DNA of 27,989 bases from a phage: the NCBI GenBank assembly GCA_025276375.1, contig GCA_025276375.1_3645.2. One strand, written 5' to 3'. Positions 24,350 through 27,249 of this stretch are shown here, in pieces; position 1 is the stretch's first letter, and every line of letters begins with the position of its first letter. Under the pieces are notes generated by a model. It had not been told where the DNA came from, made no database searches, and saw only the letters and a program-made list of their open reading frames with translations. A program made the translations under genes and the position numbers.

Positions 24350-24386
24350 AACAGTATAACAAAATAGCCCTCGTGTTAGAGGGCTA
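24350..24386 (-). terminator. hairpin + U-tract after the terminase gene
   Basis: Minus-strand UAGCCCUC-UAACAC-GAGGGCUA followed by UUUUGUUAUACUGUUUUG. Confidence 0.45.
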
Positions 24387-24435: not shown

Positions 24436-25240
24436 TTAGATAAAACGCTTGAACATAGAAGGTGATGAGATTGATGGAATCACACAAGGAAGTGCTACCT
24501 CCTCTTTCTCCAGGAAATTAATCGCAGAAGCTACACAGTCGGCCCAGTCGTCTTTTCTGTTAAATGTTGATCTTTCCCCGTTGAATTTTTCAAGTTCAGT
24601 CAGAAATGCTTCCAGAGTATCAGGATGGAAACTGGATTTTACAATCCTCACCATTCCTTGTTGGGCAAGATTGGCAAAAGGTGAGAACCTTGTCAGTTTA
24701 GATTTGTTGGAAGGCATTGGGTCTTCTTCAACCCTAAACCCTTCGGCAAGCAAGGATCTGGAGGAGGTTAAGAACTCACTCTTACCTGCCTGACCGGGGT
24801 CCACAGAGAATACGATTATACAATCATCACCATCAAACTGCGCCTGTTTCCTGATGATCACATCTCGTTCACCAGCCTTTTTACAGAACTTGCCTTCTAG
24901 ACCTGTGGAATACCTCCCGTCATCCACGTTCTCAGGACAATAATCACCGGACAGGTAATAAAAGCCGTCGCTATCTTTACTTACCTTAACACTGGCGGTA
25001 AAGTCAGGAAATTTATTACCGGAAGTTCTCTCGGTTCCTGCCTTATCCCATGCCCTGCAAGATACTGACCCAAGAGGTACTCTATCGGCATCACGAAGGA
25101 AAGATCTTTGAAAATAGTTTGCACCCTCAGGCTTTGCAAACCAGTTACCATGAAGAAGCTGAGCTTTTTCCAGTTCCGGCAGACCTTCAAGGAAAGCAAG
25201 GTATTCTGGGTTGTCTCTTAAGCAAACAGGATTATCGAAT
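24436..25240 (-). CDS. terL: terminase large subunit, exon 2 (nuclease domain); 5' boundary is the inferred 3' splice site
   Basis: The frame is open upstream of the track ORF start (24927) as far as the TAA at 25245-25243. Hand translation gives ...DNPVCLRDNPEYLAFLEGLPELEKAQLLHGNWFAKPEGANYFQRSFLRDADRVPLGSVSCRAWDKAGTE..., with terminase nuclease acidic motifs (RAWDKA, DDWADC). Confidence 0.75.
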
Positions 25241-26219
25241 CCTTATATTCAAAGGTGGTCGCAACACCACCTTCCGCACCTTTACGTGCTGCTGCATGTT
25301 ACCATGCAGAGTAGACTATATCACCACCCATTTCAGGGTGCTTCGCTTTTCGAGCGCCATAAGCTTGCGCCCTACTCCCTCTCGGGATAGTCGTTGAACT
25401 ACATTACCAATCGTAATTGTTTGAAATATAGGTGTAAGTCTTACGGTCTTTTATTCCTTTAACAACACTAAAACTTACTCCCCACTTCTTAGCTATTTTA
25501 TTTACACACAAGACCTTATCACTAAGATCCTCGCAGATACCTATTATCTTGTGCTCACTTATCCGATTAGAGGTTGGCACTTTTCTAAAGTTAAACTCTT
25601 TAGAAATATCTGGGTATACTGAGCCATTCTTTATACCACTTACAAGTGATTGATTGACACCAAACATTTCACAAATGTCTTTTACCCTTGCGCCTTGCTC
25701 TAACAGCCTACATATTTCAAGAGCAGTGGCATCATCCAGGGACCTGTATTTATTGACATAGTCCTTTTTAAGTCCCATTTCATGAGCGTGATGTGTGTTT
25801 TCCTCAGGCGTTGTCCACTCAAGGTTCCATGCGGCGTTATTCAACTTATTACCATCTAGGTGGTTTACTTGAGTTTTCACGCTGGGATTGTCATTATCAA
25901 CAAAAGTCATAGCAATCACTCTGTGAACGAGCACTTGGAACTTTTTACCGTCCTCGCACAAAGTTACCATAGCATAGCCAGTCTTTTTCTGCACATTAGG
26001 ATGGAGGAATTTATTAGAATACAGACTGTAAATTCTGCCATCGTATGTAGCACAATAATGATTGTAGCCTAAAAAGCCTAAATTTTTCATTTCAAACATC
26101 TCCCTACTACAGGTTCGGAAGGGTAATTATAGCTGCTGATTGTCCGTTTAGCAATCGGATTTCCCAGCAATTAACGAAGTTATTCGACGTGCATTTCTGC
26201 ACGAAGCCACTATCATTTA
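25241..26219 (-). mobile_element. group I self-splicing intron (about 979 nt) inside terL, carrying an HNH homing endonuclease ORF
   Basis: Minus-strand RNA contains the conserved core elements P AAUUGCUGGGAA (about 26172-26161), Q AAUCAGCAGC (about 26141-26132), R GUUCAACGACUA (25399-25388) and S GAUAUAGUCUAC (25322-25311), with P/Q (GCUG/CAGC) and R/S (GACUA/UAGUC) complementary. GNRA-capped hairpins CGUGCA-GAAA-UGCACG (5' part) and CUGCAUG-GUAA-CAUGCAG (25310-25293). Exon 1 ends in U (26220) and the intron ends in G (25241), which restores the terL frame. Confidence 0.75.
25404..26090 (-). CDS. HNH homing endonuclease (intron-encoded), about 228 aa
   Basis: HNH motif (VHRVIAMTFVDNDNP...QVNHLDGNKLNNAAWNLEWTTPEENTHH) plus two C-terminal helix-turn-helix-like repeats (ICEMFGVNQSLVSGIKNG; IAKKWGVSFSVVKGIKDRK). 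Likely start is the ATG at 26090, 9 nt after AGGGAG. Located between intron elements Q and R. Confidence 0.8.
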   Translation of the reverse strand: MKNLGFLGYNHYCATYDGRIYSLYSNKFLHPNVQKKTGYAMVTLCEDGKKFQVLVHRVIAMTFVDNDNPSVKTQVNHLDGNKLNNAAWNLEWTTPEENTHHAHEMGLKKDYVNKYRSLDDATALEICRLLEQGARVKDICEMFGVNQSLVSGIKNGSVYPDISKEFNFRKVPTSNRISEHKIIGICEDLSDKVLCVNKIAKKWGVSFSVVKGIKDRKTYTYISNNYDW

Positions 26220-26962
26220 ATGGTTGCGCCTATGAACGAGAATGACAACGGTCTTGGCTTGATCTCTACGCCAAGTCCGTTAACCGTGGTGTATTTCTCT
26301 ATCAACTCTTCTTTAGAATCTCCCCAGATAAATTCCCCGTCGCGTCGGATAAAATATCTTTTCTTACCGCATTTCTCCGGATCTGGATACCCTTCATCGT
26401 CCAACCACCATCTAACCAGTTTGGCAAGCATGTGTTCTGAATCGGGGTTACAGCTGATAACCATTCTTGATGGATACTTTGACTGAGATCGCAGACGAGA
26501 CATCAGGTAGTCTATCTGCTCCCATTCGAACTGCGTGCCCTCATCGAAGCAAACCATGGTGTACTCAAGCCCCTGATGGTTAAGCTTATCTTGTACATAC
26601 TCCATATGGCAGTATTTTACAACAGCTCCCTTTTTGCTTCTATCCCACTTACCAGTGTTCGGATCAAACCGTGGAAAAATGAACTTATGATCCTTCTCTC
26701 TGAACTTTGGCTTAATGTTTTCAGGCAGATCACTATAAATAGCTACTGCTTTAGGCCATAGTCCACCCTCACCTTCTAACTGTGGGGTTGTTCTTCGGAA
26801 CATAACCACAGAGCTGTGGGGGTCATCAATAATTTTAAGTGGCATCAACTGCAAGAGGAACGACTTGCCAGACCCTGCGGCACCGCCGATTACCAAGATA
26901 TCTGCATCGTTTTCGAGGATCATCTTCTGCTTTTCAGAACACGGTCCGTAAATCTTAGACAT
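26220..26962 (-). CDS. terL: terminase large subunit, exon 1 (ATPase domain); 3' boundary is the inferred 5' splice site
   Basis: Walker A VIGGAAGSGKS and Walker B YTMVCFDEGTQ. The unspliced frame stops at 26215-26213 after ...SFIGATIK. Start ATG 26962-26960 overlaps the Rz1 stop. Confidence 0.8.
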
Positions 26963-27249
26963 TAACCTCTCTCCTTTGGAAACAGTGTTCTAATATAGTC
27001 TTGCAAAATGATCAATTTAGCTCTATCATTGCTACAAGACAGATTATTATCCCTCATAATGCCAGAATTCACTGCATCTGGCGCACCTTTCTTCAAAGGC
27101 ATAGCTTTAGCAGGTGGTTTCATGGCACCTTCTGGGGGTTTAACAATCAACCTTCCTACATCCGGAGGGTCAATCTTGTATTCTCTCTCAACGCTGGTTG
27201 CACACCCACATAATAACAAGCACGCAATAAACAGTGTGGCAACTCTCAT
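26962..27249 (-). CDS. Rz1: outer-membrane spanin lipoprotein (Rz1-like, 95 aa)
   Basis: Signal peptide with lipobox (FIACLLLCGC), Pro-rich mature region (DPPDVGRLIVKPPEGAMKPPAKAMPLKKGAPD). Start overlaps the Rz stop (ATGA) and its stop overlaps the terL start. Confidence 0.65.
   Translation of the reverse strand: MRVATLFIACLLLCGCATSVEREYKIDPPDVGRLIVKPPEGAMKPPAKAMPLKKGAPDAVNSGIMRDNNLSCSNDRAKLIILQDYIRTLFPKERG

Follow-up and report, generated by a model that had tools for sequence, protein, structure and literature searches.

A putative I-HmuI-type HNH homing endonuclease encoded in the P6 loop of a group I intron within terL of an rV5-like Vequintavirus

The DNA analysed here, referred to as the window, is a stretch of 27,989 nucleotides from a Vequintavirus, an rV5-like E. 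coli myophage. The terminase large-subunit gene, terL, lies on its minus strand in two parts. Exon 1 (26220..26962, minus) encodes the ATPase domain (Pfam Terminase_6N, E 6.8e-17) and ends ...GGC GCA ACC AU at 26220, an end that was set by alignment with the intron-less terL genes of phages Murica, YN3 and AlexBoehm; exon 2 (24436..25240, minus) starts A UUC GAU AAU and encodes the nuclease domain (Pfam Terminase_6C, E 1.5e-6). The 979 nt between them (25241..26219, minus) form a group I intron, delimited with Rfam family RF00028, intron-less alleles and RNAalifold, which splits terL between the ATPase and nuclease domains at the conserved GATI/FDNP (the slash marks the insertion point here and below). 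The junction, ACCAU/UAAAUGAUAGUGG ... UAUAAGG/AUUCGAU, is fixed by seven intron-less alleles, and removal of the intron yields an intact TerL of 515 aa that reads FIGATIFDNP and is colinear with the TerL of Murica. A terminator scan placed a predicted intrinsic terminator after terL (24365..24386, minus); the records of rV5, Murica and HdK5 annotate a terminator at the corresponding position.

The element is already known, and is an ordinary selfish element. In phage rV5 (NC_011041), the product of rv5_gp066 is 99.6% identical to the protein encoded in the window intron and is carried by the same 979-nt intron at the same position of terL; the record annotates it as an HNH (homing) endonuclease and terL (rv5_gp065) as a three-part join, and both the endonuclease and the split terL were reported by Kropinski et al. 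2013 (PMC3606486). Where the intron is missed in annotation, terL appears as two separate fragments and the endonuclease is labelled hypothetical, and calls of this kind are found in the deposited relatives ECML-10, YP-6 and HdK5.

An Rfam scan of the window at the gathering threshold did not detect the intron: RF00028 gave split matches of 35.3 and 21.4 bits, below the gathering score of 50, because the ORF splits the covariance model. The same intron without the ORF, in phage RudolfGeigy, is ~98% identical outside P6 and scores 95.6 bits on RF00028. Since the window's own matches are sub-gathering, the group I assignment rests on this ORF-less allele and on covariation, by which the element is classed as a group I intron, presumably self-splicing. 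It probably belongs to subgroup IA because it has P7.1 and P7.2 hairpins. In the P1 helix (26207..26225, minus), read from the sequence and the Rfam alignment, the exon bases CCAU (26220-26223) and the intron bases UA pair with the internal guide UAGUGG (26207-26212); a U.G pair is present at the 5' splice site, and the terminal G of the intron is at 25241. The exon-1 reading frame stops just within the intron at a UGA (26213-26215), and the list of open reading frames accordingly ends this frame at 26213.

A homologous intron occurs in terL of Escherichia phage vB_vPM_PD114 (PD114), a phi92-like Justusliebigvirus, at the same insertion point (GGTI/FDNP) and likewise with an endonuclease ORF in the P6 loop. 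The 3' catalytic core of the window intron (25241..25397, minus) comprises J6/7, P7, P7.1, P7.2, P3', P8, P7', P9, two 3' hairpins (P9.x) and the terminal G. RNAalifold of this core found compensatory double changes relative to PD114 in 13 of 45 pairs, in a test that used two divergent lineages only and is limited in statistical power; P5 covaries too. P6 is a long-range helix, identified by RNAduplex and covariation, that closes the loop in which the endonuclease ORF is located. Its 5' strand is GCUAUAAUUACC (26122..26133, minus) and its 3' strand, GGUAAUGUAGU (25398..25408, minus), includes the endonuclease gene's final sense codon together with its UAA stop. The two strands pair at -12.4 kcal/mol in the window and at -11.0 kcal/mol in PD114, in the same register, with AUUAC paired to GUAAU in one replaced by AUCAC paired to GUGAU in the other. 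The stop codon within P6 of PD114 is UGA, a change offset by the U-to-C change on the 5' strand. That the ORF is intron-encoded, as had been proposed in a sequence-only reading of this DNA, is thus borne out by the alignment with intron-less terL alleles and by the Rfam group I matches.

The endonuclease gene (25404..26090, minus; 228 aa plus stop) was characterised from the list of open reading frames and by Pfam, PHROG, phmmer, AlphaFold2 (AF2) and Foldseek. The ORF ends at 25404 and has two candidate ATG starts, at 26099 and at 26090; the sequence-only reading, in which the strand was not stated, placed the gene at 25404-26090, which corresponds to the 228-aa version starting MKNL. A Shine-Dalgarno sequence, AGGGAG (26100..26105, minus), is separated by 9 nt from the downstream ATG at 26090 and directly abuts the one at 26099 (0 nt). 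It is common to all seven HNH-carrying alleles, and its counterpart in PD114 is AGGAG. The PD114 homologue has no upstream ATG and starts MKNL, as do nearly all family members. The start at 26090 is preferred because of the 9-nt spacing and the MKNL start of PD114 and nearly all homologues, and the same evidence favours 228 aa over the 231-aa start annotated in rV5. The earlier statement that the gene has its own Shine-Dalgarno sequence inside the intron therefore holds. The local minimum free energy fold around the Shine-Dalgarno sequence and start codon is -11.7 kcal/mol (a single fold with no shuffle control), and part of the Shine-Dalgarno sequence is paired in it, within a hairpin that takes in the start codon and reaches the first codons of the ORF. 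Pairing of CCCU with AGGG, which would sequester the Shine-Dalgarno sequence, was looked for in this fold and was not seen.

The sequence-only reading had recognised an HNH catalytic motif in the protein and proposed a profile search for HNH families. This search matched Pfam HNH_3 (PF13392) at residues 54-99 with 28.0 bits against a cut-off of 24.8 bits (E 1.7e-6), and the protein also matched PHROG_59, 'HNH endonuclease' (E 4e-52), so that the motif is confirmed; HNH_3 is matched by all 35 aligned homologues. By sequence, the only significant match in the PDB is I-HmuI (1U3E, E 2.4e-11), the nicking HNH endonuclease from the DNA polymerase intron of Bacillus phage SPO1. The AF2 model of the window protein has a mean pLDDT of 87.8, and 1U3E is its only Foldseek match with E <= 0.001 (E 2.1e-8, probability 1.00, 170 aligned columns of 174). 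The two proteins, both encoded in phage group I introns, share fold and architecture: an N-terminal beta-sheet DNA binder, a beta-beta-alpha-metal HNH site, a helical linker and a C-terminal helix-turn-helix (HTH). They differ in that they are only ~27% identical, that the window protein has 228 aa with a second, duplicated HTH whereas I-HmuI has 174 aa, and that the host gene is terL rather than DNA polymerase; nicking chemistry is assumed for the window protein.

The catalytic residues of I-HmuI are H75, the metal-binding N96 and the metal ligand D74 (PMC12724721). In the beta-beta-alpha-metal core of the window protein (residues 54-99; 25794..25931, minus), delimited with Pfam HNH_3 and the phmmer alignment to 1U3E, N76-H77 and N98 align with I-HmuI D74-H75 and N96. 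The catalytic histidine and the metal-binding asparagine are therefore both present, as H77 and N98, and the position of the second metal ligand, Asp in I-HmuI, is occupied by Asn. Among the 35 homologues H77 is invariant, and N76 and N98 are each at least 90% conserved. Its conservation across the family makes N76 a probable functional variant.

Upstream of the core, residues 1-54 (25929..26090, minus) form a predicted N-terminal beta-sheet DNA-binding region that is I-HmuI-like and weakly NUMOD4-like. It aligns to I-HmuI from residue 8 onward, and its strands are modelled by AF2 with pLDDT above 90. NUMOD4 (PF07463) scored sub-threshold on this region (13.1 bits against a cut-off of 23.4 bits, E 0.12) and is matched by twelve more distant homologues. 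Because of these twelve matches and the alignment with the N-terminus of I-HmuI, the region is probably a divergent relative of NUMOD4. The sole NCBIfam match of the protein, an ArsR-type HTH, was sub-threshold.

At the C-terminus, ICEMFGVNQSLVSGIK and IAKKWGVSFSVVKGIK fit exactly the pattern from which tandem HTH-like repeats had been proposed. The two repeat halves have 12 of 33 residues in common (blastp E 5e-6), and alignment of the family profiles of repeat 1 and repeat 2 with hhalign covered 53 columns at 98.5% probability (E 3.7e-15). AF2 models two helical HTH bundles, spanning residues 120-163 and 179-223. Repeat 1 (residues ~116-168; 25587..25745, minus), defined by HTH_23 and the AF2 helices at 120-131, 136-143, 147-155 and 160-163, sits where I-HmuI has its single HTH; it matches Pfam HTH_23 with 25.5 bits against a cut-off of 24.6 bits (E 1.2e-5) and, more weakly, HTH_7, HTH_5 and CENP-B_N. 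Repeat 2 (residues ~175-228; 25407..25568, minus) was delimited by its hhalign match to repeat 1 and by AF2 helices at 179-191, 196-203, 207-214 and 220-223. Tandem HTH-like repeats are thus well founded. The NUMOD-type label that the sequence-only reading had given them did not stand: NUMOD1 (PF07453) and NUMOD3 gave no match to the whole protein or to either repeat alone at E up to 10, and NUMOD1 is matched by only two of the 35 family members, both distant and with a different C-terminus. Close relatives match HTH_23, HTH_7, CENP-B_N and PAX in a family-wide Pfam scan, which points to resolvase, homeodomain-like and paired-type HTH families, and the NUMOD assignment was rejected.

Comparison of the endonuclease gene with the copies in YP-6, PDX, HdK5 and L014 gave dN/dS values of 0.02-0.07 (12-22 synonymous and 2-5 non-synonymous differences), a pattern of purifying selection by which function appears to be maintained. 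These values bear on the possibility that the gene is a decaying or domesticated remnant, an inactive endonuclease (for example through the D-to-N change at the metal site) that persists as an intron passenger or maturase. Such a reading could appeal to N76 itself, to the existence of ORF-less versions of the intron, which means that gene loss or gain occurs, and to the 3' end of the ORF, which forms part of P6. The low dN/dS extends over the full length of the gene and does not indicate decay, however, N76 is the family norm, and the full-length architecture is kept among homologues down to 36% identity. Viable phages evidently tolerate introns without the ORF, and to our knowledge maturase activity is known for LAGLIDADG proteins and not for HNH proteins. 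We consider a remnant improbable.

A copy of the gene at least 95% identical to that of the window is present in 15 phage records, of ~128 closely related Vequintavirus terL records, and ~88% of the Vequintavirus records are without it. Three allelic states occur at the site, namely the HNH intron, an ORF-less intron and no intron, and the intron-less terL alleles are intact. Outside the genus, Avunavirus Av-05 has an ORF-less intron at the same site, and the PD114 intron carries a two-HTH endonuclease 62% identical to that of the window. The intron core of PD114 is 79-85% identical to that of the window, although the two TerL proteins share only 40% identity and blastn finds no match between the exons. 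An intein is present in the Walker A loop of the PD114 TerL. IMG/VR scans found two endonuclease loci and 15 TerL loci, and added little beyond L006 and L014. Compared across alleles, this is the distribution of a mobile element and supports mobility.

The same distribution weighs against the proposal that the HNH protein assists the terminase in packaging DNA, as a cofactor of the HK97 gp74 or GVE2 type, and is not a homing enzyme. The gene is physically within terL, and the idea has been raised for terminase-associated HNH genes in the description of Pectobacterium phage CB7 (PMC7344957). Most close relatives nevertheless package their DNA without the gene. In phages that rely on an HNH protein for packaging, its gene is always there and always at one locus (PMC12724721). 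The gene studied here is absent from most Vequintavirus genomes, and it occupies the loop of an intron rather than the space that separates terL from the portal gene. The protein also falls in the HNH_3/I-HmuI group, and none of the matches reported for it was to an HNH family of the packaging type. On distribution and family, a packaging role was rejected as extremely improbable.

All 11 intron-bearing alleles read ACC-AU/A at the insertion point and all seven intron-less alleles read ACA-AU/A; the C completes P1. Instead of homing, a constraint on splicing through P1 could account for the difference. A long co-conversion tract was sought in the flanking exons and none was clear: the sole position tracking intron status was this one, 3 nt upstream of the junction; other nearby exon SNPs are shuffled relative to intron status.

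From the anatomy, family membership, purifying selection and mobile-element distribution described above, the ORF very probably encodes an HNH homing endonuclease of the I-HmuI type, housed by the P6 loop of a group I intron in terL that is presumably self-splicing; catalytic activity, the position and chemistry of cleavage, and actual homing are what we infer for the enzyme. In a mixed infection, by analogy with I-HmuI, the protein would bind terL that lacks the intron, at a long and asymmetric site, and would nick or cut the DNA close to the insertion point. Recombinational repair templated by the intron-bearing genome would then give the recipient the intron together with its endonuclease gene and a few bases of the adjoining exons. 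RNA splicing would restore the intact TerL, making the element cheap for the phage. The role of mobility engine of the terL intron, which the sequence-only reading had assigned to the protein, is likely in view of the HNH_3 and I-HmuI matches, the intron position and the comparative signs of mobility.

A second role, possible but distinctly less probable, is that the endonuclease is mainly a weapon in competition between phages (marker exclusion or interference) and not simply a spreader of its intron. Expressed early from its own promoter, it would cut the essential terL of co-infecting intron-less relatives and so skew which parent's packaging and structural region, taken as a whole, is passed on, or reduce the yield of the rival. 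Such competition has reportedly been described for I-HmuI and I-HmuII and for an intron HNH protein of a jumbo phage. I-HmuI-like HNH enzymes of Skunavirus cause marker exclusion in vivo (PMC12724721). The target, terL, is an essential late gene, and the strong purifying selection on the protein would fit this role. A consensus scan also found a candidate sigma-70-type promoter, TTGCTA-17-TATAAT (26126..26154, minus; 10 of 12 matches), on the 5' margin of the endonuclease-specific insert. At this position PD114 matches the consensus perfectly (TTGACA-17-TATAAT, 12 of 12), and ORF-less alleles have no TATAAT there. Promoter-like matches in the region are, however, as numerous as expected by chance (5 found, 4.9 expected), and no conserved promoter was found upstream of the 35%-identical relative in L006. 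The promoter is offered as a hypothesis, to which the scan alone lends no statistical backing. Exclusion and ordinary homing are not mutually exclusive, and the data fit both.

These elements can be joined in a more speculative reading, which we regard as unlikely. A host-type promoter would arise where the insert meets the intron, from a -35 in the L5 loop and a -10 (TATAAT) at the insert's 5' edge, and it would allow early synthesis of the enzyme without reliance on the late terL transcript. The enzyme would be a weapon cutting terL of co-infecting intron-less Vequintaviruses, and the ACA of intron-less alleles would be a cleavage-resistance polymorphism, beyond the mere lack of a P1-compatible C. 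The duplicated, paired-domain-like HTHs would lengthen the recognition site and so let a single enzyme family be redirected among three targets, site A and site B of terL and the portal gene.

Under the preferred reading, as a homing element, the intron is a further example of such elements targeting conserved motifs in essential phage genes. Within the same subfamily, Vequintavirinae, the Certrevirus CB7 also has a terL intron, the splicing of which was demonstrated by RT-PCR (PMC7344957). Its endonuclease, CB7_2, is 37% identical to the window protein over residues 75-228 (E 2e-29), including both HTH repeats, and as annotated has 166 aa and no N-terminal domain. The CB7 intron interrupts terL elsewhere, close to the Walker B motif, at a position that is empty in the window, and it was therefore rejected as the same element. 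Lactobacillus phage LL-H, an unrelated siphovirus, likewise has a group I intron in its terminase large-subunit gene (Mikkonen and Alatossava 1995, as cited in PMC3606486).

The Vequintaviruses provide a natural series at the site, from no intron through the ORF-less intron to the endonuclease intron, which lends itself to measurements of homing, co-conversion and competition in E. coli phages that serve in therapy and typing. Phage rV5 also has a second, ORF-less intron of 320 nt upstream in terL (CDS nt 425/426), which the window lacks; the same gene has a second, independently polymorphic intron site.

Structural regions of Vequintavirus (rV5-like E. coli myophages) matched the window at ~95% identity over 24 kb, and its terL region was 98-99% identical to those of phages ECML-10 and rV5. 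The genes lie on the minus strand in the order i-spanin, o-spanin, terL exon 1 (26220-26962), intervening sequence, terL exon 2 (24436-25240), terminator (24365-24386) and portal gene. Alignment with the intron-less terL alleles of Murica, YN3, AlexBoehm, JohannBauhin and three related loci (L008-L010) placed a 979-nt intron at 25241-26219 on the minus strand. Exon 1 ends in ...ACC AU and exon 2 starts with A UUC GAU, giving the ligated product FIGATI-FDNP and a predicted spliced TerL of 515 aa that is colinear with Murica TerL; the exon 1 reading frame meets a stop two codons inside the intron. The U that ends exon 1 forms a P1 pair with a G in the internal guide UAGUGG; the final intron base is G. 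The o-spanin stop codon overlaps the terL start codon (ATGA, 26959-26962), and there is a further overlap between o-spanin and i-spanin (27246-27249), which suggests that the lysis and packaging genes are translationally coupled. The related contig L005 has a tRNA cluster immediately past the point matching the high-coordinate end of the window.

The same intron is present without an ORF, at 266-268 nt, in RudolfGeigy, C7, A135 and WM. Relative to this form, the ORF-bearing intron has ~730 nt (window ~25400-26131), containing a Shine-Dalgarno sequence and the endonuclease ORF, in place of a 21-nt P6a hairpin. A long-range P6 helix on the minus strand, formed by GCUAUAAUUACC (26122-26133) and GGUAAUGUAGU (25398-25408), encloses the insert; the final sense codon of the endonuclease gene and its stop fall within the 3' strand of this helix. 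In the diverged intron of Escherichia phage vB_vPM_PD114, P6 covaries from AUUAC/GUAAU to AUCAC/GUGAU, so that the endonuclease stop changes from UAA to UGA. Compensatory double changes were found in 13 of 45 predicted pairs of the intron 3' core, and the P7.1 and P7.2 hairpins between P7 and P3' in the Rfam alignment suggest subgroup IA. The ORF-less RudolfGeigy copy scored 95.6 bits on the Rfam group I model; the window gave two pieces of 35.3 and 21.4 bits, both below the gathering score, and at the gathering threshold nothing was reported across the whole 28-kb window. Routine RNA annotation is blind to the ORF-bearing intron.

The longest mechanical ORF (minus strand, 26099-25404) encodes 231 aa, and a start at 26090 gives 228 aa beginning MKNL. 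The later start is better supported: the Shine-Dalgarno AGGGAG (26100-26105, minus strand) is spaced 9 nt from the 26090 ATG and directly abuts the 26099 ATG, only one ATG follows the AGGAG of the PD114 homologue and it leads into MKNL, and MKNL is the N-terminus of nearly all family members. The sequence-only reading, which placed the gene at 25404-26090 with its own Shine-Dalgarno inside the intron, was thus borne out. Purifying selection on the ORF is strong, with dN/dS of 0.02-0.07 against PDX, HdK5, YP-6 and the related locus L014 (12-22 synonymous and 2-5 non-synonymous differences).

The HNH motif proposed from sequence was recovered by profile search, with Pfam HNH_3 matching residues 54-99 at 28.0 bits (curated cut-off 24.8) and PHROG_59 'HNH endonuclease' at E 4e-52. 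Among solved structures, significant similarity was limited to I-HmuI (1U3E), both in sequence (E 2.4e-11, residues 8-155) and in fold (Foldseek E 2.1e-8, 170 of 174 columns), the latter with an AlphaFold2 model of mean pLDDT 87.8. The I-HmuI catalytic residues D74, H75 and N96 (PMC12724721) correspond to N76, H77 and N98. Across 35 homologues H77 never varies, and conservation of N76 and N98 is at least 90%; judged by this conservation, the Asn that replaces D74 is the clade norm and probably not a lesion. The N-terminus gave a sub-threshold hint of NUMOD4, which is matched by 12 more distant relatives.

Both C-terminal repeats fit the predicted pattern. They have 12 of 33 residues in common (E 5e-6), their family profiles align with 98.5% probability (E 3.7e-15, 53 columns), and each is predicted by AlphaFold2 as a small helical HTH bundle. 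Their proposed resemblance to NUMOD-type modules did not hold, as Pfam gave no NUMOD1 assignment and grouped them with resolvase, homeodomain-like and paired-box HTH families; HTH_23 matched residues 123-152 above the cut-off. Foldseek matches to the bipartite HTH domains of Pax6 and Tc3 were not significant (E ~0.2-0.3). Repeat 1 corresponds in position to the one HTH present in I-HmuI, repeat 2 is an additional module, and full-length relatives retain this two-HTH architecture at identities as low as 36%.

Together with the purifying selection, comparison among phages points to a live and mobile element. Its distribution is patchy: an endonuclease copy at least 95% identical is present in 15 phage records, against ~128 closely related terL records; an estimated 15 or so others carry the ORF-less intron, and in most the site has no intron. 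At the same codon position Avunavirus Av-05 carries an ORF-less intron, and PD114 (Justusliebigvirus) one that encodes a two-HTH endonuclease of 62% identity. PD114 and window TerL are only 40% identical and blastn of the flanking exons, 400 nt per side, gave no match, whereas the intron cores are 79-85% identical, the pattern predicted by horizontal transfer into a conserved target. Before AU/A, the exon reads ACC in 11/11 intron-bearing and ACA in 7/7 intron-less alleles; the base that differs is the third of the Thr codon (given as window 26221, and as 2 nt ahead of the final exon base, 26220). No other SNP near the junction tracked intron status in these 18 alleles. The C completes the P1 pairing, and so was either co-converted with the intron or is needed for splicing; the difference could also be a target-site resistance variant.

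I-HmuI-type enzymes bind an extended site and nick or cut the intron-less allele, and repair copies the element. This is most likely how the ORF product acts, by analogy. It would bind an extended asymmetric site across the insertion point of an intron-less terL allele and nick or cut it, and repair templated by the intron-plus genome would transfer the element, with TerL function preserved through RNA splicing. Alongside the observed anatomy, family membership and population pattern of the element, we infer activity, cleavage position and homing. A role in competition or marker exclusion is compatible with homing and inseparable from it by present data. A sigma-70-like match (TTGCTA-17-TATAAT, 26126-26154, minus strand, 10/12 consensus) has its -10 precisely on the 5' boundary of the endonuclease-specific insert, a hint that the gene may be expressed separately from late terL transcription. 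The corresponding position in PD114 holds a perfect TTGACA-17-TATAAT (12/12), and TATAAT is missing from ORF-less alleles. However, promoter-like matches in the region are no commoner than chance, and the feature was not seen in the uncultured phage contig L006. A packaging-cofactor HNH role was rejected, as most close relatives lack the gene and the HNH family is different.

An HNH endonuclease in a split terL is correct but already known: in the rV5 record terL is a three-part join and a 99.6%-identical gene is labelled an HNH (homing) endonuclease, and BASEL phage records also join terL. The papers searched gave no description of the P6-loop location of the ORF with its stop codon within P6, the duplication of the HTH module, the existence of three allelic states at this site or the occupation of the same terL site across genera, which are incremental details. 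The ECML-10, YP-6 and HdK5 deposits annotate terL in fragments or not at all, and the value of the finding lies mainly in annotation quality.

A second terL intron site (~26536-26538, CDS nt 425/426, Walker B region VCFDEG/TQF) is empty in the window. It holds a 320-nt ORF-less group I intron (Rfam 84-85 bits) in rV5, RudolfGeigy, JohannBauhin and A135, and an 884-nt version in HdK5, L009 and L010, with an endonuclease-VII-like ORF in HdK5; relatives show independent variation at the two sites. Pectobacterium phage CB7 (Certrevirus; L033 1-2457) has a related two-HTH endonuclease in a terL intron, but near the Walker B motif, and splicing of that intron was demonstrated by RT-PCR (PMC7344957). 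As annotated, CB7_2 (166 aa, 37% identity to residues 75-228, both HTH repeats) lacks the N-terminal domain, and so may be truncated or mis-started. The portal gene of L006 (2093-4566) is split by a group I intron encoding a two-HTH HNH endonuclease of 35% identity, which indicates that the same endonuclease family has been retargeted to more than one structural gene. Besides any introns, TerL of the more distant phages PD114 (L007 1147-2385) and L006 (2-2083) carries an intein-like insertion in the Walker A loop (GGAAG/C...N/SGKS).
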